Positions 178 to 13,355 of a DNA stretch of 64,000 bases are shown here, in pieces. The DNA is from Ekhidna sp. (lineage in GTDB: Bacteria; Bacteroidota; Bacteroidia; Cytophagales; Cyclobacteriaceae). The number at the start of each line of letters is the position of its first letter. The first letter of the stretch is position 1. The translations under genes and the position numbers were made by a program. The DNA lies in contig JBGCFL010000026.1 in NCBI GenBank assembly GCA_045106975.1, positions 23,590 to 87,589 of the forward strand, given 5' to 3'. The notes beneath the pieces were generated by a model that searched no databases, was not told where the DNA came from, and worked only from the letters and a program-made list of their open reading frames with translations.

Positions 178-636
178 ATGAGTAATTATACTTCTGTTCT
201 TGCGTCACTGCCCTATGCGAAACCATTCCACTTTGTAGATGAACTAACATCAATTGATGAAAGCGGTGCTCAAGGCAGCTACACTATTCGTGAAGATGAA
301 TATTTTTTTAAGGGACATTTTCCAGATCACCCTGTTGTTCCCGGAGTTATTCTCACAGAAATAATGGCTCAAATAGGATTGGTCTGTCTGGCGATTCATT
401 TACTTCAAGAGAAAGGGGAGACTAGCGAAGTATTACCTGCATTTACTAGTTCAAATGTTGATTTTCTAAAGAAGGTATCTCCAAAAGATAAATTAATTAT
501 CGAATCAAAAAAAGTGTATTTTCGTTTTGGTAAACTTAAATGTCAGATTTCGTGTAAGTTTCCTGATGGAACAATTGTAGCAAAGGGAGAGTTTTCAGGA
601 ATGATCGTAAAAAAGCAGGATATTGAAAAAGCATAG
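178..636 (+). CDS. 3-hydroxyacyl-ACP dehydratase, FabZ-like hotdog fold (cluster-associated paralog)
   Basis: 152 aa with the FabZ active-site block GHFPDHPVVPGVILTEIMAQ (catalytic His and Glu present). Overlaps the downstream KAS gene by 14 nt. Confidence 0.85.
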   Translation: MSNYTSVLASLPYAKPFHFVDELTSIDESGAQGSYTIREDEYFFKGHFPDHPVVPGVILTEIMAQIGLVCLAIHLLQEKGETSEVLPAFTSSNVDFLKKVSPKDKLIIESKKVYFRFGKLKCQISCKFPDGTIVAKGEFSGMIVKKQDIEKA

Positions 637-1903
637 AGTAGTCGTTACAGGAATGGGAGTCGTGTCTTCCAACGCAATAGGCGTAGACAATTTCGAGGAG
701 GCTTTGCGAAGTGGAAAATCCGGCATTAGACATTGGGATGAATTAGAAAAACTAAATCTGAGATGTCAGATTGGCGGAGTTCCAGATTTAGATTCCATTG
801 ATTTAAATGACTATTTACCAAAACTTCATGCTCAAAAACTAACCAATAAAGGAATTATCTATGCTCTTTTAGCTGGAACTGAAGCTTGGAAGGATGCAGG
901 ACTTACACCTAACACTGATGAAACTGACTTTAACTCAGGAATCATGTTTGGAGCTGGAGCTCTTAGTTTTGATAGCTATATAGGGAGAGAGTTTCCTGCT
1001 TACCCAATAGATAAAGGGGAAAGCAGAAGATTAGGTACTAGAACTATTTCTGAAGGGATGAATAGTGGTGCTGCTGCTTATATCAATTCTATTCTTGGAG
1101 TAGGAAATCGAGTGCAGTCTCATTCTTCTGCTTGTATTACCGGATCTGAATCAGTTTTGTCTGGGTATGAATACTTAGCCGCAGGTAGGGCAGATAGAGT
1201 TTTGTGTGGTAGTACAGAGGGAGATGGAAGGTATATATGGTCTGGTTTTGATGCAATGAGGGTTCTTTGTACGAACTCCAATGACGATCCCGGTAGAGGA
1301 TCAAGGCCAATGAGTAGTGATTCTTCAGGTTTTGTGCCTTCAGGGGGAGCAGGAGCAATGGTTCTAGAGACATTGGAGAGCGCAGAGAAGCGAGGAGCAA
1401 AAATCTATGCCGAAGTTTTAGGAGGACATATGAATTCTGGAGGTCAGCGTAATGGAGGGACAATGACTGCTGCTAATTCAGATGCAGTGGTAAACTGCAT
1501 TCAGACAGCAATGAAAACATCAGACATTGAGCCAGATGAAATAGATTTAATTAATGGTCATCTAACTTCTACCAAAGGTGATCCAACGGAAATTAGAAAT
1601 TGGGTTAAAGCTACAGGGAGGTCTGGGAAAGATTTCCCACTTATTAATACTCCCAAATCTATGATAGGTCATGCAGTAGCGGGTGCAGGTTCAATTGAGC
1701 TTGTTGCGAGTATACTGCAGCTGAGCAAAAACTTTGTTCACGCCAATTTGAACGTGGAAAATATTCATTCAGAAATTTTATCAGAAATCTTTGGGGGTTG
1801 CATTCCTACCAGTTGCCTTGGTCGGGAATTAAACACTATAGTAAAAGCCAATTTTGGTTTTGGTGATTTAAATTGCGCGATCGTTTTACGGAAATTTCTT
1901 TAA
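623..1903 (+). CDS. beta-ketoacyl-ACP synthase (KAS I/II type)
   Basis: 426 aa with N-terminus MKKHRVVVTGMGVVS. The Cys-His-His triad is present in the contexts SSACITGS, NGHLTST and KSMIGHAVAGAG. Confidence 0.9.
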   Translation: MKKHRVVVTGMGVVSSNAIGVDNFEEALRSGKSGIRHWDELEKLNLRCQIGGVPDLDSIDLNDYLPKLHAQKLTNKGIIYALLAGTEAWKDAGLTPNTDETDFNSGIMFGAGALSFDSYIGREFPAYPIDKGESRRLGTRTISEGMNSGAAAYINSILGVGNRVQSHSSACITGSESVLSGYEYLAAGRADRVLCGSTEGDGRYIWSGFDAMRVLCTNSNDDPGRGSRPMSSDSSGFVPSGGAGAMVLETLESAEKRGAKIYAEVLGGHMNSGGQRNGGTMTAANSDAVVNCIQTAMKTSDIEPDEIDLINGHLTSTKGDPTEIRNWVKATGRSGKDFPLINTPKSMIGHAVAGAGSIELVASILQLSKNFVHANLNVENIHSEILSEIFGGCIPTSCLGRELNTIVKANFGFGDLNCAIVLRKFL

Positions 1904-1905
1904 GA

Positions 1906-2160
1906 ATGAATAACACAAGTGTAAAAACAGACCTATTAGATATTATCAAACCATATCTTCCTGAAGATATCTCCATCGATGGAGTGACGGAAGACAAGCA
2001 TTTGATTGATGATCTACAAATCAATTCAGCTCATATAGTTGATATCGTATTGGATATAGAAGATAAATTTGACATCATGATAGATGATGATGCAATTGGC
2101 GAAATGAATACCGTCCAGGATTCGATTAATGTGGTCATGAAAATGACTACTGCTGCTTAA
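1906..2160 (+). CDS. acyl carrier protein
   Basis: 84 aa from ATG 1906; the track ORF start at 1873 lies inside the KAS 3' end. ACP-like helix II has a candidate phosphopantetheine Ser in DLQINSAHIVDIVLDIEDKFDI. Confidence 0.75.
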   Translation: MNNTSVKTDLLDIIKPYLPEDISIDGVTEDKHLIDDLQINSAHIVDIVLDIEDKFDIMIDDDAIGEMNTVQDSINVVMKMTTAA

Positions 2161-3065
2161 GATTCTTCTAGAAGCTTTTTATCAAATCTTTTTTGTCTGT
2201 AGTTCAATGGAATAATCGCAAGAGTCCAAACTGAACTACAGATGAGATAAAGATCAAAGCGTCCAAAAAAGGCAAAAATTATTATTGCATTTCTATGAGT
2301 GTTGCTACCACATAGCCATGCCCACCAAAAAAGCATTTTCTTATTAAGGTAAGAATATAAGCTATCAAAATTATTGTTTCCTTCTTTAGCTAAAGAGCGC
2401 ATTTTTAGTCTCTGTTCAGGTGTTCTTGTAGTGTAGATCAGTGTTTTCTTTATATAGTCTTTGTAGATACCGTCAAGAATTTTATTGTGAAATGAATCTC
2501 CGGTTGATTTTAATTCATCTGAGGAGATAGGCATATTACCAGCCTCTGATTTACCTATCAACAATAGGTACTCAGCTTTATAAAATTCGTAGAGGGCAGT
2601 TTTATAGCTATGCGTGTATCCAGAGATACCAGCCAGAACGATGATTAACCAACCATAAGTAGGGAAAAAATATACAGCACCTCCCACGTAGCAGGCAAGA
2701 AACACTACATTGTCTATTACGCCATCTATAGACCTACCAAGCTCTGTAGATTGACCAGTCATACGAGCCAGTTGACCGTCGGCACTATCTAGCACTCCAG
2801 CTAATGTTATAAGAACGCCTCCAATTAAGACTATTTCAGTTGAGTTTTGAAAGAAAAGCAATCCACCTCCAATAACACCAAGTAGTAAACTAAGTAGAGA
2901 TACATGTGTAGGAGTTAAAGAAAGCCACTTTCCCATTTTAGCAAAATACAACCCGTAAAACCGACTGAAATAAATATCATATCGCTCTTCGATATCAATC
3001 TGTTTTATAGTAGAAAGTACTTCTTCTAAATGTTTGTCAAACTTTCTTTTTAACATGCTACTCAA
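2157..3065 (-). CDS. CDP-alcohol phosphatidyltransferase family membrane protein
   Basis: Complete family motif D-x2-DG-x2-AR-x8-G-x3-D-x3-D in LDSADGQLARMTGQSTELGRSIDGVIDNV. Multiple hydrophobic segments. At 302 aa it is longer than a minimal PgsA-type enzyme. Confidence 0.85.
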   Translation of the reverse strand: MSSMLKRKFDKHLEEVLSTIKQIDIEERYDIYFSRFYGLYFAKMGKWLSLTPTHVSLLSLLLGVIGGGLLFFQNSTEIVLIGGVLITLAGVLDSADGQLARMTGQSTELGRSIDGVIDNVVFLACYVGGAVYFFPTYGWLIIVLAGISGYTHSYKTALYEFYKAEYLLLIGKSEAGNMPISSDELKSTGDSFHNKILDGIYKDYIKKTLIYTTRTPEQRLKMRSLAKEGNNNFDSLYSYLNKKMLFWWAWLCGSNTHRNAIIIFAFFGRFDLYLICSSVWTLAIIPLNYRQKRFDKKLLEES

Positions 3066-3143
3066 AGATTCGTCATATTATTTGAGCAAAATCTAAGGAT
3101 GGAAGTATTATAGATTTCGCAATGATTTGACTTCAAAGTTAAG

Positions 3144-4238
3144 TTATCGTGGACGTAAAAATGATTTAGACGCTACTTTTCCAAATCCATTAACTAATGA
3201 CATGATTATGGAAGCCTTTCTTACACTCCATTTTGAAATTGATTCATCCTCAGAATATTTCTGTACGTCTTTTAGTACCAAATTTTGAAACTGGGTAATG
3301 ATACCGGTATCTTTTGAACATAAGACTACCTCTTGTTCAAAATAGTAGCTGATCAAATCATAATTACTACTTCCGAATAATAACTCCTCACCATCTATGA
3401 GAACGGCTTTCATATGAGACATTCCAGGATATTCTTTTAGCTGAAAATAGCCTTTATCTTTCTCAGCTAAAATTAGATTCTTAAAAATTGACTTATTATT
3501 CACTTTTGGTGTGATAATAGTAATCTGAACACCTTTTGAGGCAGTCAATTTCAAAACATTTAAGAGAGGCTCAGAGATATAAGGGGATATAACTTCTACT
3601 GATTGCTTTGCTGATGAAATTCTTTTGAACAGGGAATCATAAATACCTTTACTTTTTATGCCGTTGAGAAGATATAATACTCCTTTATCTGTTTCTATTT
3701 CTTTTGACTGATTGTTGTCTTTTTGAGTTTCACGAAAATCATTTCCAAGTCTATTTCCAAGATCAAGACTATCTAGTGAAATCATCATATCGTGCCAAGA
3801 GAAATTATGATCACTAAAGTTAATCCCTCCTAAATAACAATATTGCTCATCGATAATGACCATTTTTTTGTGATTCCGAAGAGGATATTTTTGGCCTACC
3901 CAGCCAACTGGATTTGTGAATTTAACTTCAATCCCAGCTTCAATAGCTTCTTTTATAAGCGTTTTGGTATTTAGTACTTCCTTCCTGAATTCTTTATCAG
4001 ACCAATATTTCGTAGAAAAAATAAATTGGTCATTGATGACTACTTTGGAATAACTATCGATTAATATTTTTTTTTCTTTGGCAGGGCTGCTTTTCATGAC
4101 GGATATCAGCCATTTTCCTGCATCATCGCCCTCAAATGTCATTGCCTGAACGAAGAATGATTTTGTAGCCTTTTTTGCGACTAATTCTACGCTTTCTTTA
4201 AAAGCATTAGATCCTAATAAGATTTTAGACTTAGACAT
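3144..4238 (-). CDS. phospholipase D superfamily protein (two HKD motifs; cardiolipin/phosphatidylserine-synthase-like, apparently soluble)
   Basis: HKD1 is HKKMVIIDEQYCYLGGINFSDHN and HKD2 is HMKAVLIDGEELLFGSSNYD. No N-terminal transmembrane segment is evident. Confidence 0.85.
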   Translation of the reverse strand: MSKSKILLGSNAFKESVELVAKKATKSFFVQAMTFEGDDAGKWLISVMKSSPAKEKKILIDSYSKVVINDQFIFSTKYWSDKEFRKEVLNTKTLIKEAIEAGIEVKFTNPVGWVGQKYPLRNHKKMVIIDEQYCYLGGINFSDHNFSWHDMMISLDSLDLGNRLGNDFRETQKDNNQSKEIETDKGVLYLLNGIKSKGIYDSLFKRISSAKQSVEVISPYISEPLLNVLKLTASKGVQITIITPKVNNKSIFKNLILAEKDKGYFQLKEYPGMSHMKAVLIDGEELLFGSSNYDLISYYFEQEVVLCSKDTGIITQFQNLVLKDVQKYSEDESISKWSVRKASIIMSLVNGFGKVASKSFLRPR

Positions 4239-4265
4239 GCTCGAAAAGTTAATTAGATCAGAATT

Positions 4266-5093
4266 TTACTGGTTGATACCATATTTAATAGACTCAATTT
4301 CAAATGAAAAAGCTCCAACGGTCATATCTAATTCAAACTTCAGTGGAAGTTTGTTGGCATCATCGGATACAATTACCCTTCCTTTCTTACCTTTTTCGAA
4401 ATAATCCCCTTCAGGAAAGATCAATTCAAATTCTTGAGCACCAACATTGGAACCTAAGTATTTGTAAGTTGTCTTTTTACCAGGATTCATTTGAAATTCA
4501 TACAAGTCGTTCGTGAAAAATGTTCTTGCAGATACGGTACTAGATAGTTCTTCATCCTTCCTACTCCTTAACCAAAGATAAGTGCTAAGAACATCTCTTA
4601 CAGGGCTCTCCCCCAATTCAAATGTATGATACCTCCATTTATCAATATCTTCAATATATGCGTCAATTTTTACTGAGTCAGCGTATTTAAAGTGATCGTA
4701 CCTAATGTCAATTTTTTTCCCGTCAGATAAATTTCTGTGAGATTTATATGGTTGCAAGTTATCTGCTTGAACAAGTGATTCCATATGGATTCTCAGCTTA
4801 GAAAATATTTTAAACCAGCTCACAGTTTTGATATTGCATTGAATATTGTAATGCTCTTCACCATCATGTGTTTCTAAGTCTGGTTCAATCCATATTTCAG
4901 CCGAGCCAATTTTGAACCACCCATAGTGCATGGTATAGTATAGTTTTTCTCCTCTTTTAAAAGGATATGTTTTACTTTGGGCTTGAGAATTTTCTGTGTC
5001 AAAAAGAAGAATTCCAATTAACATAAATATGGCCAGATAACGGCTTATTACCTTGTATGAAAGTTGCTCTAGTATGTCCATATGATTTTTCAC
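4266..5093 (-). CDS. DUF3108-like secreted or membrane-anchored protein
   Basis: Has an N-terminal hydrophobic anchor or signal (AIFMLIGILLF...AQS) and a beta-rich body (YYTMHYGWFKIGSAEIWIEP...) resembling DUF3108. The start is uncertain: M1 at 5093 overlaps the GT4 start, and alternative Met codons lie at 5081 and 5024. Confidence 0.55.
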   Translation of the reverse strand: MKNHMDILEQLSYKVISRYLAIFMLIGILLFDTENSQAQSKTYPFKRGEKLYYTMHYGWFKIGSAEIWIEPDLETHDGEEHYNIQCNIKTVSWFKIFSKLRIHMESLVQADNLQPYKSHRNLSDGKKIDIRYDHFKYADSVKIDAYIEDIDKWRYHTFELGESPVRDVLSTYLWLRSRKDEELSSTVSARTFFTNDLYEFQMNPGKKTTYKYLGSNVGAQEFELIFPEGDYFEKGKKGRVIVSDDANKLPLKFELDMTVGAFSFEIESIKYGINQ

Positions 5094-6157
5094 GTCCTGG
5101 TGGTGTTAAGTCTCATATTGTAAGTCTTTCCCACCATCTTACAATGATAGGTCATCACGTTAAGATAATAGCTCCCAATATTAATGCCAATTTAGTTGAA
5201 GAAGAAAATGTATGCTTTTTTGCGCAGAGTAAATCAATCAATTTGGGCGGCACTAAAATTGATATCAACATTGCATTGGGCTCTGAAAAGAAAGCTTTAA
5301 GAAATTTTTTGAAAAGAGAGAGTTTCGATGTGATACATTACCATACTATTTGGAATCCTTTTCTTCCTTTTCAGGTAAGAAGATACTCAAGCGCAAAGCA
5401 AATTGCGACCTTCCATGACACACCGAAGAGTCAATTCGTTGGGGACTGGATTATGCCGACAGTAGCAAAAGGGGTTTTTCGATTTTTAGATCAAATCATC
5501 TCGGTATCTAAAAGTCAATCCAAATTTATTTCTAGATTTTCCAAACGAAAAATCCATATTATCCCAAATGGGATTGATTTGAAGTCTATTGAGTCGGTAG
5601 CTCCCAAATCATCTTCTCGAAAAGATGATAGTTTTCAATTGTTTTTTATGGGAAGACTTGAGCCACGAAAGGGAGTAATGCATGCTCTAAAAGCATTTCA
5701 CAAATTAAAGGACAGATATCCTAAATTGAAATTACTAATTGCAGGAGATGGAGATGGTAGAGTTGAAGTTGAGGAATACATTAATAATCATTCGTTAACT
5801 GATGTAGAGTTATTGGGCTTTGTTTCGGAAAGAGATAAGTATAAGATACTGAAAGAATCCGAAATTTATCTTGCTCCGGCCTTATATGGGGAGAGTTTTG
5901 GTATTGTACTACTAGAATCTATGGCTGTTGGGACACCAATTGCAGGCTATGCAAACTCAGGCTATATGAATGTTATTACTAATAAAATGAAGGATGGCTT
6001 TGCAGACCCAAGTGATTTGGAAGAACTTGTCAAAAAAATTGAAAACCTAATTCCTTCAAGAAAACGTGAAGAGCTATCTATTCATGGATTAGAAGAGGTC
6101 AAAAAATACGACTGGAGTAAAATTTCTAAAGATATATATGAAGTATATCAACTCTAA
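5057..6157 (+). CDS. GT4 (GT-B) glycosyltransferase, PimA-like
   Basis: N-terminus MKVALVCPYDFSRPGGVKSHIVSLSHHLTMIGHHVKIIAP resembles, from memory, mycobacterial phosphatidylinositol mannosyltransferase PimA. Also has EPRKG and the E-x7-E motif (ESFGIVLLE). Confidence 0.8.
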   Translation: MKVALVCPYDFSRPGGVKSHIVSLSHHLTMIGHHVKIIAPNINANLVEEENVCFFAQSKSINLGGTKIDINIALGSEKKALRNFLKRESFDVIHYHTIWNPFLPFQVRRYSSAKQIATFHDTPKSQFVGDWIMPTVAKGVFRFLDQIISVSKSQSKFISRFSKRKIHIIPNGIDLKSIESVAPKSSSRKDDSFQLFFMGRLEPRKGVMHALKAFHKLKDRYPKLKLLIAGDGDGRVEVEEYINNHSLTDVELLGFVSERDKYKILKESEIYLAPALYGESFGIVLLESMAVGTPIAGYANSGYMNVITNKMKDGFADPSDLEELVKKIENLIPSRKREELSIHGLEEVKKYDWSKISKDIYEVYQL

Positions 6158-7251
6158 GCGGTTGCGAATTTGAAATTAGGATTTCCAAACTTTTTTAATG
6201 TTCTGTAATGAGATGATATAGCATCTCCGAATGTGTCATGACAATTGTAAGGAACCCCATGTTCCTTTGCAATCCTTTCTACTATCGGACTAATTTTAGG
6301 ATAGTGTATACTGCAAACATTCGGGAATAGATGATGCTCAATCTGATAATTGAGTCCTCCAATAAACCATGATAATAACTTATTGCCTCTTGCGAAATTA
6401 TTCGTAGTATACATTTCATGAATCACCCAATGATCTTCAATCATATTATTTTCATTAGGTAATGGATGAGTTGTTTCTTCAACAACATGAGCAAGTTGAA
6501 ATATGATCCCTAGAATCAAACCAGCAGTTAAATGGGTTGACAAAAAGCCAATCAAAAACTGCCACCAAGTGATTTCAAGTAATATTAAAGGAATTACAAT
6601 GGCATACCCATAATAGGCCAACTTTGTTATAATTAGAGTTAACCATTCCCTGAGTTCATGTTTCTTGTTTTCAAATGGGCCAAGTGTAGGCTTAAAAAAG
6701 TACCAATAATCTTTAACAAATACCCAAAATATGGTTGCGAAACTATATGCTGGGAAAGCGAGTAAATGTTGAAAACGATGAATTGGTTTGTGCTCAGTAT
6801 GTGGTGAAAGCCTGATGAACTCGGCGACTTCTAAATCCTCATCATGACCATGGATATTTGTGTATGTATGATGTATTACATTATGAGTAATTTTCCAAAT
6901 ATATCCATTGGCTCCAACTAAATCGAAAAATAAACCAACAGCATAATTGATTTTGCTATTAGAAGAATATGACCCGTGAAGAGCGTCATGAGTTACTGAA
7001 AATCCAATTCCTGCCATCCCAATGCCCATCCCGATGGCTAGCATCCACATTGTGGATAATGAAAATCCACCTGAAATAATCAAAGCATAACAGCCGAAAT
7101 AGATAGCTAAAATAATGATGGTTTTAACAACCATTTGTGCATTAGCATGCTTCGAAATATTTTCTTTTTTGAAAAAGGCTTTTACCTCTGCTTTTACAGC
7201 TTCGTTAAATTCACGATCTATTTTATTGTTGAAAGTTACTTTTTCCGGCAT
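6154..7251 (-). CDS. membrane fatty-acid desaturase, front-end type (third box QxxHH), no cytochrome b5 domain
   Basis: His boxes HDALHG, HNVIHH and QIEHHLFP; four or more hydrophobic spans; no HPGG heme-binding motif. Confidence 0.85.
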   Translation of the reverse strand: MPEKVTFNNKIDREFNEAVKAEVKAFFKKENISKHANAQMVVKTIIILAIYFGCYALIISGGFSLSTMWMLAIGMGIGMAGIGFSVTHDALHGSYSSNSKINYAVGLFFDLVGANGYIWKITHNVIHHTYTNIHGHDEDLEVAEFIRLSPHTEHKPIHRFQHLLAFPAYSFATIFWVFVKDYWYFFKPTLGPFENKKHELREWLTLIITKLAYYGYAIVIPLILLEITWWQFLIGFLSTHLTAGLILGIIFQLAHVVEETTHPLPNENNMIEDHWVIHEMYTTNNFARGNKLLSWFIGGLNYQIEHHLFPNVCSIHYPKISPIVERIAKEHGVPYNCHDTFGDAISSHYRTLKKFGNPNFKFATA

Positions 7252-8467: not shown

Positions 8468-9586
8468 TCAATTTGAAAGATTCTTCATGAATGCTTCTTT
8501 GTTTTGAACTGGAGTGGTAGTAGGTCGTCCCAAATCAGCCCGTGAGCTTTCTGTTGTTCTTATTTCCAACAAAACTGGGCCTTCTGTTTTTTGAAATTGA
8601 TCCCAAACGGCAGGAAGTTGATCCATTTCAGTCACCAACCAGGTTTTTTTGTAGCCCGATGCATCTGCTATTTTTTGAAAGTCAATGGCGAACCCAACAG
8701 TAGCTTGACCTCCAACAGATTCATGGCAGCCATTGTTGATCAATATGTGCTTGTAATTTTTTGATGGTTGATTACCAATAATCGCTCCTGCTCCCATGTG
8801 CATAATGGTAGCACCATCGCCATCCAGGCAATATACAGGACGTTTTTTCTTACTAAGCGAAATGCCCAACGCTATCTGAGAGGCATGCCCCATTCCTCCA
8901 ACAGTAAGGAAGTCTTTGCCATGTCCCATCTGATTTTTAGCTCTAATCTCAAAAACTTCTCTTGAAGATTTTCCTGTAGTAGAAACCACAACAGCACTTT
9001 CTTCCATCCCTTTCAGCATCCACTCAATGACTTCTTCACGGTTAATTGAATAGGGATTCTCAACCTTCGTTTTAAGCTTATACTTTTCAAAGACTCCTTT
9101 TCTTACCAATAGGGCAAATGGAGTATTGTTTGAATTCATGGCCTCAAATGATTTTACCAATTGCTGTTTAGCCTCATCTTCATTATCTGAAAGAATGGCA
9201 TAATCAATCCCCATAGTTTGCAAAAGCTCTTCAGAAATTCTTCCTTGCTTCACATGCTGTGGCTCATCTTTCACCCCTGGTTCACCTCTCCATCCTATCA
9301 TAAGTAGCATTGGAATGGAGTATACATCAGAGTCAGCTAACGATGCTAAAGGATTTACGCAATTTCCAAAGCCAGAATTTTGCATATAAACTAAAGGAAT
9401 CTTGCCTGTAGCTAGATGATGTCCAACTCCAAGAGCGATTGCGCCACCTTCGTTTGCAGCAATAATATCTGTTCCTTCATCAGTAATAACTGAACAAAAA
9501 TCTTTTAGTAGAGAGTCTGGAACTCCAGCAGAAAACTCGACTCCCTGATTACGAATGGATTTTAGAAACTTCTGAGGATCTAGCAT
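8468..9586 (-). CDS. ppd: phosphonopyruvate decarboxylase (ThDP-dependent)
   Basis: 372 aa with the ThDP motif GDGATIMHMGAGAIIGN...INNGCHESVGGQ. Its size and its position between the PEP mutase and PhnW genes fit this call. Confidence 0.85.
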   Translation of the reverse strand: MLDPQKFLKSIRNQGVEFSAGVPDSLLKDFCSVITDEGTDIIAANEGGAIALGVGHHLATGKIPLVYMQNSGFGNCVNPLASLADSDVYSIPMLLMIGWRGEPGVKDEPQHVKQGRISEELLQTMGIDYAILSDNEDEAKQQLVKSFEAMNSNNTPFALLVRKGVFEKYKLKTKVENPYSINREEVIEWMLKGMEESAVVVSTTGKSSREVFEIRAKNQMGHGKDFLTVGGMGHASQIALGISLSKKKRPVYCLDGDGATIMHMGAGAIIGNQPSKNYKHILINNGCHESVGGQATVGFAIDFQKIADASGYKKTWLVTEMDQLPAVWDQFQKTEGPVLLEIRTTESSRADLGRPTTTPVQNKEAFMKNLSN

Positions 9587-9630: not shown

Positions 9631-10923
9631 CTAGTTTGGAAGAATAGTTAATATTTCTTTGATTGACATACAGAATTCGTCAGCTTCTTTTGACCTTTTG
9701 TGCGTTAAAATTGATTCTGCTGTTTTCTGCATAGCAGGGAATGCAGCTCTCAATAAGTGATTGGCATAAATGACAATACTGAAGCCAGCCTCATGTAGTT
9801 CTTCTTCTGTGAATTGGTTGTAAGAGGATGGTACAGACACAACAGGTACCTTGTATTCAAATTCCTGATATTTTTTCATGAATTCCATGATCTCACTTCC
9901 ATCTTTATGTCGACTGTGAATCATGATTGCGTCAGCACCAGCTTCTATATATGCTTTAGCTCTAGTAAGAGCATCTTCCATTCCATGTTCTGCTATTAAG
10001 CTCTCTAAACGAGCTATAACCATGAAATCTTCGGTGACTTGAGCCTTTTTACCTGTGTTGATTTTCTCACAAAAACCTTCAATAGTATCAAGTTCTTGCT
10101 TTACCTCAGTTCCGAAAAGTGAATTTCTCTTTAAGCCTACTTTATCTTCTATGATCACAGCGGAAACACCTAATCGCTCAAGGTTTCTAACAAGCATAGC
10201 AAAGTGTTCAGAAACACCGCCTGTATCGCCATCTAGAATGATTGGCTTTGTCGTCACATCCAATATGTCATTGATGGTATTGAATCGAGATGTTCTATCT
10301 ACATACTCTGTGTCTGGTTTTCCTTTTGCTGTAGAATCTGTCAATGAGCTTACCCACATTGCATCAAATTCTCTTACTTCACTTTCAGCGGCAATTGTTG
10401 TTTGCTCCACAATCAATGCTGAAATACCATTGTGAGTTTCCATTACTCTAACAATGTCTTTAGACTCTAAAAGTCTTCTCAGCATTCTTCTTCTTATGTC
10501 AGGCGTAGTACCTACTTCCTTCATCGCAGCTCTAAGGCCAGTTGATGAAATGCCTGAAGTGTATTCTGGTTCTACCAATTCTCCACCCCATTCAGCTAAT
10601 AGCTTTACAACTTTTTCACGGATATGCTTTTGTGGACCTGTTTTCCAATCACTTCCATGTACAACATAATCAGGCTTAAGTTTTCTTAAGTTTTCCTCAT
10701 AGTCGAGTACTTGCTGAGGAATAACTTCTTTTACGCCTTTTAAATTTTCAAGAATTTTTTTTCGCTCTTCGTAAGATAAAAAAGGAGTTCGGCTATACTT
10801 ACTTACTGCTTTATCAGACAAAAGTCCGACGGTTACTTCACCCAATTCTCTTGCAGTCTCTATTATATTGATGTGTCCGTGATGAATGAGATCTGTTCCC
10901 ATTCCTACATATACTGTCTTCAT
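9631..10923 (-). CDS. pepM: bifunctional cytidylyltransferase-domain / phosphoenolpyruvate mutase fusion
   Basis: The N-terminal ~130 aa carry HxGH (DLIHHGH) and GISSTGLR, which are TagD/ECT-type cytidylyltransferase motifs. The C-terminal ~290 aa belong to the isocitrate-lyase superfamily and carry the PEP-mutase signature EDKxxxxxNS ([12 protein letters not shown]). Confidence 0.85.
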
Positions 10924-11087: not shown

Positions 11088-11807
11088 ATGACGCAAACGA
11101 TTGAAACTGCTGTAATACTAGCAGCAGGCAGAGGCACAAGATTACAGCCATTCACTTTTGATATTCCCAAAGGATTTATGCCTGTAGGGGATGAGCGATT
11201 AATAGAGCGCTCTGTTAGACTGCTTAAAGAGAATGGCATTAAGAATATCATCATAGGAACGGGACACTTGCATGAGCATTATGTCAGGTTCGCTGAGGAG
11301 AATGGTCTTCAGACATTTCTTAGTCCTGACTTTGCGACTACAGGTAGTTTTCATACTCTTATTTTTGGTTCTGAACTTATAGAAGGTGATTTTTTGCTAT
11401 TAGAATCTGATTTGCTTTATCATTCAGATGCAATAAAAAGCCTTCTAAATTCATCGAATGACGATGTTATCCTGACGAGTGGATTTACTCAGTCAAATGA
11501 TGAAGTGTATGTTGAGATAGAAGGAGGAAAGCTGAAAAGTCTGTCTAAGAAAAAAGAAGAGCTAGCATCAATTGATGCGGAGTTAGTTGGGATTTGGAAA
11601 ATTTCGATGAGCCTACTTAATAAACTTAAAGAACATCACGCATCAGCGGCTGACGGGAAGAAAAAGGATTATGAAATTGCAATAGCAGCACTATCGGAAG
11701 TTTATCCTGTTGACGTTCTAAAGTTAGATGACTTGGCTTGGTGTGAGATAGATAATCAAGAACATCTAGAAAGAGCAAAAAAGAAAATACTCCCTAGGCT
11801 CGATTAA
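11088..11807 (+). CDS. LicC/PntC-like nucleotidyltransferase (candidate phosphonate or phospho-alcohol cytidylyltransferase)
   Basis: 239 aa from ATG 11088 with the N-terminal NTP-transferase loop AVILAAGRGTRLQPFT. Divergent from the pepM operon. Confidence 0.75.
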   Translation: MTQTIETAVILAAGRGTRLQPFTFDIPKGFMPVGDERLIERSVRLLKENGIKNIIIGTGHLHEHYVRFAEENGLQTFLSPDFATTGSFHTLIFGSELIEGDFLLLESDLLYHSDAIKSLLNSSNDDVILTSGFTQSNDEVYVEIEGGKLKSLSKKKEELASIDAELVGIWKISMSLLNKLKEHHASAADGKKKDYEIAIAALSEVYPVDVLKLDDLAWCEIDNQEHLERAKKKILPRLD

Positions 11808-12400
11808 GTCTTAGGCGCCTGCCAAAGCCCAGTTTGGGGATCTCTAGAACCGCCCGTGCCTAGGTAACCATACATTAATTCCAAGTAGCCCTTTGTGTTA
11901 TTTGGTACTGTTATTTCCAAGCCTAAAAATTCATCCTTTTTCAGCGGGTATACTAATTCTTTAGGAATGAGCTGTCTTTCATTTGGATAATTGGCGTCAA
12001 CAAATGTTCTAATATTTTCCTCTTTATCTTCATAAAAGAAGATATCGAAATCATACCCTTTGTATGAAAAATAAACTTTAGGACCTTCATGATTTGCTGA
12101 AGTATCATAGAATTTTAAGCCTTTAGGCATTTTATTTTTCAACTCTTTTATTTTCTCATAAGAGCTTTCCATCATGGCAACATCAATATCTACATCGTGA
12201 GGAATAATACCGCCTGACCTGTAATACCCCAATAATGTCCCAAAGTCTAACCAATAAGGCTCTCCAGTTTCCTTCAATAGGTCAATAGAAAGTCTATACA
12301 TCTCTTCTAAGACATGAATCTTTCTTTTTCTATATTGACCGGGCAATGCGAATAAAATTACATTTGCAATCCGTTGAATGTATTGGCTTAGGCGAATCAT
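11804..12400 (-). CDS. LicD-family phosphotransferase
   Basis: 198 aa with the LicD/fukutin-type block LDFGTLLGYYRSGGIIPHDVDIDVAM. Confidence 0.75.
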   Translation of the reverse strand: MIRLSQYIQRIANVILFALPGQYRKRKIHVLEEMYRLSIDLLKETGEPYWLDFGTLLGYYRSGGIIPHDVDIDVAMMESSYEKIKELKNKMPKGLKFYDTSANHEGPKVYFSYKGYDFDIFFYEDKEENIRTFVDANYPNERQLIPKELVYPLKKDEFLGLEITVPNNTKGYLELMYGYLGTGGSRDPQTGLWQAPKT

Positions 12401-12437: not shown

Positions 12438-13355
12438 TTGGAACAAAAAGAGATTCATAAACCTATCGATTTAGTCTACACTTGGGTAGATGGGGATGAT
12501 CCTGAATACAGAAAATTAGTAAATCAGTATTCGGAGAAACCAATTGATCTAAATCCAGAAAGAACTCGGGATATTTTTCAGCTAATGAAATTTAGTCTCA
12601 GGTCTGTTGAGAAATATGCTCCTTGGATTAATCATATTTATATCCTGACTTGTCGTCCTCAGTATCCTGCATGGTTAGATATTGATCATCCAAAGATATC
12701 GATCATTCATCATGATGAAGTTTTTGATTCCTCAGACATCCCAACTTTCAATTATAACGTGATTGAAAGCTATCTGCATAAAATTCCTAACCTGTCTGAA
12801 GATTTTATATATCTCAATGATGATTTTCTGTTTGGAAATAATGTATACCCATCTGATTTCTACTCAAAAGACAATAAGGTGCTGATCCATGGATCATTGC
12901 TTGGGGAGAATCTAGGATGGAGAATTTATAACAAAAAGAATGACATCCTTGGTCTTGGTCTTATAGAACATTCACCTCTTCTGATTAGGAAAAGGTGGTG
13001 GCAACAAATGCAAGACAGGAGAAAAGATTTAATTGATGATATCAAGTCTCATAAGTTTAGAGAAGGGACAGATGTGATGACCTACAAGCTTTATCGATGG
13101 TATTGTTTGAAATTTGAAAAGGAAAATGCAAAAGCGATAAAACTACCAGACTTATTAAAAATTCATTCCTTTCATAAAATCACTAATGATTTCAAAAAGC
13201 AAGAAAAAGCATTTAAAAAATTGGAGGAAAAGCAACCCAAATTCTATTGCCTAAATGATGATCAGGGAGATCGACCAAATCCAAAGGTGGTTGAGCTTGT
13301 TCAGGATTTTCTTCAAACACAGTACCCTAGCAAATCTTCATTTGAAAAGTATTAA
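12438..13355 (+). CDS. Stealth-family hexose-1-phosphate transferase-like protein
   Basis: Stealth CR1 (IDLVYTWVDGDDPEY), a CR2-like block (FSLRSVEKYAPWINHIYILT...PAWL) and YLNDDF. It has a TTG start, with no ATG upstream of CR1. Confidence 0.75.
   Translation: MEQKEIHKPIDLVYTWVDGDDPEYRKLVNQYSEKPIDLNPERTRDIFQLMKFSLRSVEKYAPWINHIYILTCRPQYPAWLDIDHPKISIIHHDEVFDSSDIPTFNYNVIESYLHKIPNLSEDFIYLNDDFLFGNNVYPSDFYSKDNKVLIHGSLLGENLGWRIYNKKNDILGLGLIEHSPLLIRKRWWQQMQDRRKDLIDDIKSHKFREGTDVMTYKLYRWYCLKFEKENAKAIKLPDLLKIHSFHKITNDFKKQEKAFKKLEEKQPKFYCLNDDQGDRPNPKVVELVQDFLQTQYPSKSSFEKY

Follow-up and report, generated by a model that had tools for sequence, protein, structure and literature searches.

What is left for a cytidylyltransferase domain to do when it is fused to a phosphoenolpyruvate (PEP) mutase and a second, unrelated cytidylyltransferase is encoded next door? 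This question is raised by a 64,000-nucleotide stretch of DNA from Ekhidna sp. (assembly GCA_045106975.1, contig JBGCFL010000026.1, positions 23,590 to 87,589 of the forward strand), hereafter the window, in which a minus-strand gene of a 2-aminoethylphosphonate (AEP) cluster encodes an N-terminal cytidylyltransferase (CyT) joined to a C-terminal PEP mutase (Ppm). We found that the protein belongs to the known Fom1-type family, here in the less-studied setting of an AEP cluster, and that strong purifying selection acts on its N-terminal domain, which probably still works and has a phosphonate site that appears to have been remodelled. The gene and the parts of its product are as follows.

9631..10923, minus strand: CyT-Ppm fusion gene, 430 aa (P0001); open reading frame (ORF) and translation, two Pfam domains
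10513..10923, minus strand: N-terminal Fom1-type cytidylyltransferase domain, residues 1-137; PF01467 profile match, 5x3d_A
10873..10884, minus strand: HxGH motif, H14-H15-G16-H17; sequence, invariant in relatives
10789..10800, minus strand: K42-Y43-S44-R45, which is S-Y-K-R in Fom1 and all canonical relatives; alignments
10540..10563, minus strand: YTSGISST, the counterpart of RTxGISTT (YTPGISST in Fom1); sequence and alignments
9634..10482, minus strand: C-terminal PEP mutase domain, residues 148-430; TIGR02320, 1m1b, Foldseek, motif
10120-10149, minus strand: Ppm-specific EDKxxxxxNS motif, residues 259-268; sequence

The first-pass annotation of this DNA, made from the letters alone, had described a TagD/ECT-type HxGH fold followed by a PEP mutase at residues ~140-430, and both domains were confirmed by domain-resolved profile searches and structure prediction. 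In Pfam, PF01467 (CTP_transf_like) matched residues 11-132 (profile positions 7-132 of 133, E 8e-17) and PF13714 (PEP_mutase) matched residues 148-406 (E 2e-58), while the NCBIfam PEP mutase model TIGR02320 scored 417.3 bits against a cut-off of 319.55 and the C-terminal domain matched PDB entry 1m1b at E 1e-45. The IHHGH and GISSTGLR blocks that had been singled out are present, with HHGH at residues 14-17 and YTSGISST, then GLR, at residues 121-131. An AlphaFold2 model built from a 42-sequence alignment contained two confident domains (mean pLDDT 89.9, pTM 0.83), the lowest-confidence blocks of its N-terminal half being residues 121-140, around the domain junction. Foldseek placed the C-terminal domain with the solved PEP mutases 1s2t, 5unc and 1pym (target TM-scores 0.87-0.89); the top 50 matches of the whole model were PEP mutase/isocitrate-lyase folds only, and the N-terminal domain gained nothing from this search. 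The fused domain belongs to PF01467 and not to PF12804 or PF00483, and the protein is thus not a fusion of a LicC/PntC-fold nucleotidyltransferase to Ppm. Neither is it a member of the TagD/ECT group proper: TIGR01518 reached 50.7 bits against a cut-off of 165.4, and Tyr121 replaces the Arg of RTxGISTT.

When the N-terminal 145 residues were compared with PDB sequences, the top match was 5x3d_A (E 7.6e-55), far ahead of TagD, ECT and CCT, with 81 identical residues among 135 aligned by our own count of the alignment (~60%). This entry, deposited under the title 'phosphoenolpyruvate phosphomutase', is the cytidylyltransferase domain of Fom1. As the work of Cho et al. 2017 is related in PMC6697681 and PMC9088020, Fom1 serves fosfomycin biosynthesis as a bifunctional PEP mutase, and its CyTase converts 2-hydroxyethylphosphonate (HEP) and CTP into CMP-HEP; some active-site residues are called 'exclusive' in a review (PMC9088020). 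By sequence and structure comparison, the Ekhidna protein is a Fom1-type two-domain enzyme.

The first-pass annotation had further suggested that this fold on a PEP mutase might be unusual beside the LicC/PntC fusions, or even rare or undescribed. Nothing stood in its favour except the annotation's view that the fusions already described have the LicC fold, and we now regard it as vanishingly improbable, since 5x3d represents the same fold on a PEP mutase and the published inventory of Rice et al. 2019 puts PF01467-Ppm fusions, with the Fom1 CyTase as their example, at 23.6% of 1485 non-redundant Ppm in RefSeq, next to 33% with Ppm fused to PF12804 (the LicC/PntC fold) and 2.9% fused to both (PMC6697681). 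The architecture is therefore common and already characterised. Our own searches agree: all 8000 scored candidates had E <= 0.001, each of the best 120 carried both domains, and homologs aligned to the fusion protein end to end (residues 1-430). Among 401 sampled Bacteroidota genomes Ppm was found in 10, nine of which have the full-length CyT-Ppm fusion, and the fusion recurs at 56-67% identity in contigs of Verrucomicrobiota, Bacillota, Chloroflexota, Pseudomonadota, Spirochaetota, Woesearchaeota and Methanosarcinales. The closest relatives come from Ekhidna species (96% identity), which points to a marine member of the Cytophagales, the cultured Ekhidna lutea DSM 19307 has a protein 92% identical, and one source gives such a protein the name 'phosphoenolpyruvate phosphomutase / 2-hydroxyethylphosphonate cytidylyltransferase'. 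The setting is on record as well, in that Li & Horsman 2022 describe clusters with an AEP transaminase and PF01467-fused Ppm, and also a large group with two cytidylyltransferases, one of them Ppm-fused, and phospholipid genes (PMC8942020).

The nearest genes give the pathway context of the fusion.

8468..9586, minus strand: phosphonopyruvate decarboxylase (Ppd), 44 nt downstream of the fusion gene; TIGR03297
7353..8444, minus strand: 2-aminoethylphosphonate transaminase (PhnW/AepZ type), 23 nt past Ppd; NF010006
10998..11807, plus strand: PntC-type (LicC fold) cytidylyltransferase, transcribed away from the fusion gene; 6pd1/6pd2

Ppd scored 468 bits against the TIGR03297 cut-off of 312.5, and the transaminase scored 317.6 bits against the NF010006 cut-off of 296 and 360.0, just under the cut-off of 360.8, for TIGR03301. 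The separate LicC/PntC-fold gene that had been read from the sequence at first pass is real: its product matched PntC of T. denticola (6pd1/6pd2) at E 5e-47 and retains the pair of Glu residues with which Tde-PntC contacts the amine of AEP (contacts per Rice et al. 2019, PMC6697681). Homologs and Tde-PntC align to it only from about residue 26-37, and an internal Met stands at residue 31; the true start is probably M31 (window 11088), which would widen the gap between this gene and the divergent fusion gene from 74 nt to ~164 nt.

From the established functions of these families, the C-terminal domain would convert PEP to phosphonopyruvate, and Ppd and the AEP transaminase would pull the mutase reaction forward to AEP. 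The N-terminal domain, which is of the same subfamily as the CMP-HEP-making domain of Fom1, would then bind CTP and cytidylylate a phosphonate, most likely AEP, and one may speculate that it and the separate PntC feed different transferases, such as a CDP-alcohol transferase and LicD. We found no iron-containing alcohol dehydrogenase (Fe-ADH, PF00465) and no FomC-like protein in the 96%-complete genome, using a search that detected Fe-ADH in 12 of 14 reference genomes as a positive control; HEP therefore lacks an obvious source. An HEP substrate supplied by the canonical Fe-ADH was rejected on this ground, and HEP might still be made by other reductases.

How does this arrangement compare with those of other fusion genes? 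We classed 89 fusion-gene neighbourhoods by tblastn and with a hidden Markov model (HMM) built from PntC-like enzymes. Ppd and Fe-ADH without an AEP transaminase, the HEP route of Fom1/Fom2/FomC, were found in 41 of the 89 loci, and these Fe-ADH-linked fusions often lie inside polysaccharide loci; canonical motifs together with Fe-ADH characterised 38 of the 89 relatives, and in 29 of these 38 no second nucleotidyltransferase was detected. In the tree, the AEP-transaminase-linked fusions did not group together but fell into three clades within the Fe-ADH-linked set, namely the window clade, Treponema/Kiritimatiellia and one Methanosarcinales sequence. The window clade (Ekhidna, Reichenbachiella, Balneolaceae) had 100% SH-aLRT support and grouped with the Verrucomicrobiota Fe-ADH type; its partners are Ppd, an AEP transaminase and a separate PntC ortholog, the clade having switched to the AEP transaminase and acquired PntC. 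A rule taken from the first tblastn classing, that PntC occurs only where the AEP transaminase does, was dropped because the HMM found PF12804 nucleotidyltransferases in nine canonical Fe-ADH loci. The HMM also recognised a PntC-like ORF in L096, where a Pfam scan of the ORFs gave no family.

The same relatives allowed the active site to be compared residue by residue. Fom1 and the 41 Fe-ADH-linked proteins have in common S-A-D ... HxGH ... S/T-Y-K-R ... HGDDW, followed, except in three loci with a broken GISST, by Y-T-x-G-I-S-S-T; Lys44 is invariant in Fom1 and in 41/41 of these relatives. Seven positions set the 38 rows of the window clade (37 loci and the window's own protein) apart from the HEP type: S9G, A10T, T36S, I40V, S42K, K44S and a variable D91. 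Within these 38 rows H14, G16, H17, N19, D37, R45, R54, D92, W93, Q98, R102 and Y121-T122-x-G124 are invariant, I125, S126 and S127 are kept in all or all but one, and HxGH is invariant here as in the 41 Fe-ADH-linked loci. By phmmer alignment residue 44 corresponds to the second Lys of human ECT 'KHK' and to the Lys of the CCT 'FKG' motif, Lys122, which is important for phosphocholine binding. In TagD, Lys44 and Lys46 touch the phosphates of CDP-glycerol, and the enzyme cannot do without His14, His17 and Arg113 (PMC8262930); since the alignment with TagD is shifted by one residue here, the equivalence of residue 44 with TagD Lys46 is uncertain. Read in this way, through alignments with ECT, TagD and CCT, the phosphonate site seems to have been remodelled, with the conserved Lys44 changed to Ser and a Lys gained at position 42.

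Other lineages have lost other parts of the site. In Treponema/Kiritimatiellia fusions, which have a PF12804-type nucleotidyltransferase and an AEP transaminase adjacent, HxGH has become HPGI or HPGL, and the Methanosarcinales fusion (L059) has N-Y-T-R. GISST is gone from a Bacillota-centred group (L093, L095, L097, P0124-P0126); in L093, L095, L097 and the triple fusion P0124 a PF12804 domain is adjacent or fused, and P0126, which adjoins an AEP transaminase and a nucleotidyltransferase, has lost Lys44 as well, as have P0155 and P0174 among the representatives. All four non-canonical lineages, the window clade included, have a PF12804-type nucleotidyltransferase adjacent or fused.

Is the N-terminal domain of the Ekhidna protein, then, still a working enzyme? 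Across the window clade its identity to the window protein was 76-93%, compared with 77-97% for the mutase domain, and among Ekhidna copies its dN was 0.06-0.09 with dS saturated (>1.9), which puts omega at or below about 0.04. The domain is thus under strong purifying selection, and it spans the whole PF01467 profile, whereas the match of degenerate relatives stops near profile position 100. With conservation on a par with that of the mutase domain and a dN/dS of <= ~0.04, a decaying remnant was ruled out for this clade; the rejection does not extend to other lineages. Strong purifying selection and the retained nucleotide motifs indicate that the domain probably still works. These two features, together with a genome without Fe-ADH, lead us to give about an even chance to the reading that it is still a cytidylyltransferase and that AEP is its most likely substrate. 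Several observations weigh against this reading. Position 44 is Ser (34 rows) or Ala (4 rows) throughout the 38 rows of the window clade, the window itself having K-Y-S-R. The PntC ortholog, only 74-164 nt away, matches a characterised AEP cytidylyltransferase at E 5e-47, keeps the AEP-amine Glu pair and could account for AEP activation alone. Three other lineages with a PF12804 nucleotidyltransferase have a fused domain from which HxGH or GISST has disappeared, which sets a precedent for loss of catalysis in this setting, and the literature that we searched contained no measured activity for any PF01467-Ppm fusion from an AEP cluster. With a PntC ortholog next door and the conserved Lys lost, the earlier proposal that the last, activating step on AEP falls to the fused domain, on the same polypeptide as the mutase, is weakened.

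The loss of Lys44 in the whole clade, and a PntC ortholog that is always adjacent where the flank allows, would also fit a domain that is catalytically silent or nearly so and serves the mutase in a structural or regulatory role (oligomerisation or nucleotide sensing), with PntC doing all AEP cytidylylation. We consider this main rival unlikely, although it has precedents in the HPGI/HPGL fusions of Treponema/Kiritimatiellia, in P0126, and in L093, L095, L097 and P0124. It also draws on the distribution of PF12804-like nucleotidyltransferases, present in 45 of 48 non-canonical loci (the other three limited by contig ends) and 9 of 41 canonical ones, a tally over relatives that are not independent and that amounts to four lineages of four, not to a statistical result. 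The nine canonical, presumably active fusions that also have a PF12804 nucleotidyltransferase mean that coexistence alone does not equal inactivity. Against silence, moreover, HxGH, YTxGISST, Q98, R102 and D92-W93 are invariant between Cytophagales and Balneolaceae, omega is at most about 0.04, and Lys42 and Arg45 could replace Lys44. It is more doubtful still that the domain is active on a substrate other than AEP, be it HEP, an N-methylated or hydroxylated AEP, or a phospho-alcohol, so that the two nucleotidyltransferases would make two different CMP/CDP donors for the transferases of the locus. The sole characterised family member does use HEP, the seven positions given above depart from the HEP type on the phosphonate side, the locus has four candidate transferases and a methyltransferase, and Firmicutes loci with a PF12804 nucleotidyltransferase on Fe-ADH and a canonical CyT on Ppm hint at non-redundant roles. 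Without a genomic Fe-ADH, however, it is not obvious where HEP would come from; the conserved core showed no oxygenase, only four relatives were found to have the methyltransferase beside the cluster, and nothing points positively to another substrate.

Beyond the choice among these readings, the comparison allows a broader and tentative interpretation: in clusters that acquired a PF12804 nucleotidyltransferase, the Fom1-type domain may repeatedly have been freed from its original job and yet always been kept on the mutase. At least four independent lineages would have lost invariant residues in this way (Lys44 in the window clade and L059, His17 in Treponema, GISST in Firmicutes and in triple fusions). 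If this is true, the domain would also serve the PEP mutase in a non-catalytic way, and the Ekhidna/Balneolaceae form would be either at the start of such decay or an enzyme re-specialised for a new substrate.

The remaining genes of this cell-envelope locus include the candidate transferases.

11804..12400, minus strand: LicD-family phosphotransferase; PF04991, syntenic in the clade
12438..13355, plus strand: Stealth-family hexose-1-phosphoryl transferase; PF11380, PF17101, PF17103, syntenic
2157-3065, minus strand: CDP-alcohol phosphatidyltransferase of a lipid/glycolipid module; Pfam
3144-4238, minus strand: PLD-like gene of the same module; Pfam
4266-5093, minus strand: DUF3108 gene of the same module; Pfam
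5057-6157, plus strand: GT4 gene of the same module; Pfam

The block of CyT-Ppm, Ppd and AEP transaminase together with that of PntC, LicD and Stealth is syntenic in Ekhidna, Cyclobacteriaceae metagenome-assembled genomes, Reichenbachiella and Balneolaceae. The lipid/glycolipid module (2157..6157) lies by the AEP core in Ekhidna, the Cyclobacteriaceae metagenome-assembled genomes, G215 and Balneolaceae, and was not found in four Reichenbachiella loci. The four candidate phospho- or phosphonotransferases of the locus are thus the CDP-alcohol, PLD-like, LicD and Stealth proteins. A fatty-acid desaturase gene at window 6154-7251 was found in two related loci only (L022, L044), and since other Ekhidna loci lack it there, it is a variable insert outside the conserved cluster. 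Where the window has this desaturase and DUF3108, between the genes for the AEP transaminase and the CDP-alcohol transferase, Balneolaceae-type loci carry an 802-aa ORF that matched nothing in Pfam (L014:4696-7104). The left edge of the locus (window 178-1903) holds genes for a FabA-like dehydratase and a beta-ketoacyl synthase, and the related genome L013 has the same pair by the CDP-alcohol transferase, with the synthase gene duplicated.

Several further arrangements were seen among the relatives. In the Bacillota HEP-type locus L087 (12429-14252) a PF12804 nucleotidyltransferase is fused to Fe-ADH (607 aa) and a canonical CyT is still on Ppm; the same fusion occurs in L072, L073, L081, L083, L089 and L090, and mirrors a Treponema fusion of PntC to the AEP transaminase, in that a LicC-fold enzyme is tied to the maker of its presumed substrate. 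Stand-alone CyT-like ORFs, 31-34% identical to the window N-terminal domain, lie directly upstream of the fused CyT-Ppm in Methanosarcinales (L059:1098-1445) and Woesearchaeota (L065:10001-10372). After a Bacteroidota CyT-Ppm/Ppd/Fe-ADH cassette, L020:12838-13950 encodes a TagF-like CDP-glycerol glycerophosphotransferase homolog (PF04464), a candidate for the enzyme that transfers HEP from CMP-HEP. The sole sampled Bacteroidota Ppm without a CyT domain (L021:1015-2613, 532 aa) scored 84 bits in its C-terminal part against the PntC-like HMM, Pfam listing PEP_mutase only, and is possibly a Ppm-nucleotidyltransferase fusion in the opposite order. Lastly, P0130 (L108:7001-8305) is a Ppm with a heavily degenerate N-terminal domain, without HxGH or GISST; no Ppd, transaminase or Fe-ADH is nearby, and the adjoining Asp/Arg-hydroxylase-family and polysaccharide genes suggest a different downstream route.

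The fusion itself is of little novelty, being the textbook Fom1 architecture and common in nature; only its place in an AEP cluster with a second activating enzyme alongside and the replacement of one active-site Lys are unusual. Many phosphonate clusters have two unrelated cytidylyltransferases, and the role of the PF01467 domain in AEP-type clusters is a smaller question within that setting, for which K-Y-S-R against S-Y-K-R offers a clean natural variant, whether of changed substrate, of redundancy with PntC or of an incipient pseudo-enzyme kept for the mutase.

Among known systems, Fom1 of Streptomyces wedmorensis is alike in domain order, HxGH, Y-T-x-G-I-S-S-T, EDKxxxxxNS and an N-terminal domain that is ~60% identical; it differs in its partners Fom2 (Ppd) and FomC (Fe-ADH), in its use of HEP and in belonging to an antibiotic pathway, whereas the Ekhidna fusion lies in a cell-envelope locus, where it is partnered by Ppd and an AEP transaminase, and has no genomic Fe-ADH and K-Y-S-R for S-Y-K-R. 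TagD, ECT and CCT share the fold and HxGH (3elb, E 2e-16; 1coz, E 6e-11), but the Ekhidna domain falls far below the TIGR01518 cut-off, has Tyr for the Arg of RTxGISTT and Ser for the Lys of CCT 'FKG'. The characterised LicC-fold AEP cytidylyltransferases, PntC (Tde1415 of T. denticola, 6pd1/6pd2) and Ari1348 (Rice et al. 2019, PMC6697681), resemble the fused domain in proposed chemistry (CTP + AEP to CMP-AEP) and kind of gene cluster, yet the folds are unrelated (PF12804/PF00483 versus PF01467) and the window has a PntC ortholog of its own. The widespread CyT-Ppm/Ppd/Fe-ADH cassettes of glycan loci carry a fusion that is 56-67% identical over its full length and translationally close to Ppd; they encode the HEP route, and the window clade has the AEP transaminase and PntC instead. 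Similar in gene content is the 'Burkholderiales_CDP-OH' group (PMC8942020), with an AEP core, two cytidylyltransferases of which one is Ppm-fused, and phospholipid-type genes; it belongs to a different phylum and has an alpha-ketoglutarate/Fe(II) oxygenase, none being seen in the window, while the Ekhidna locus has LicD, Stealth and GT4 beyond that gene set.

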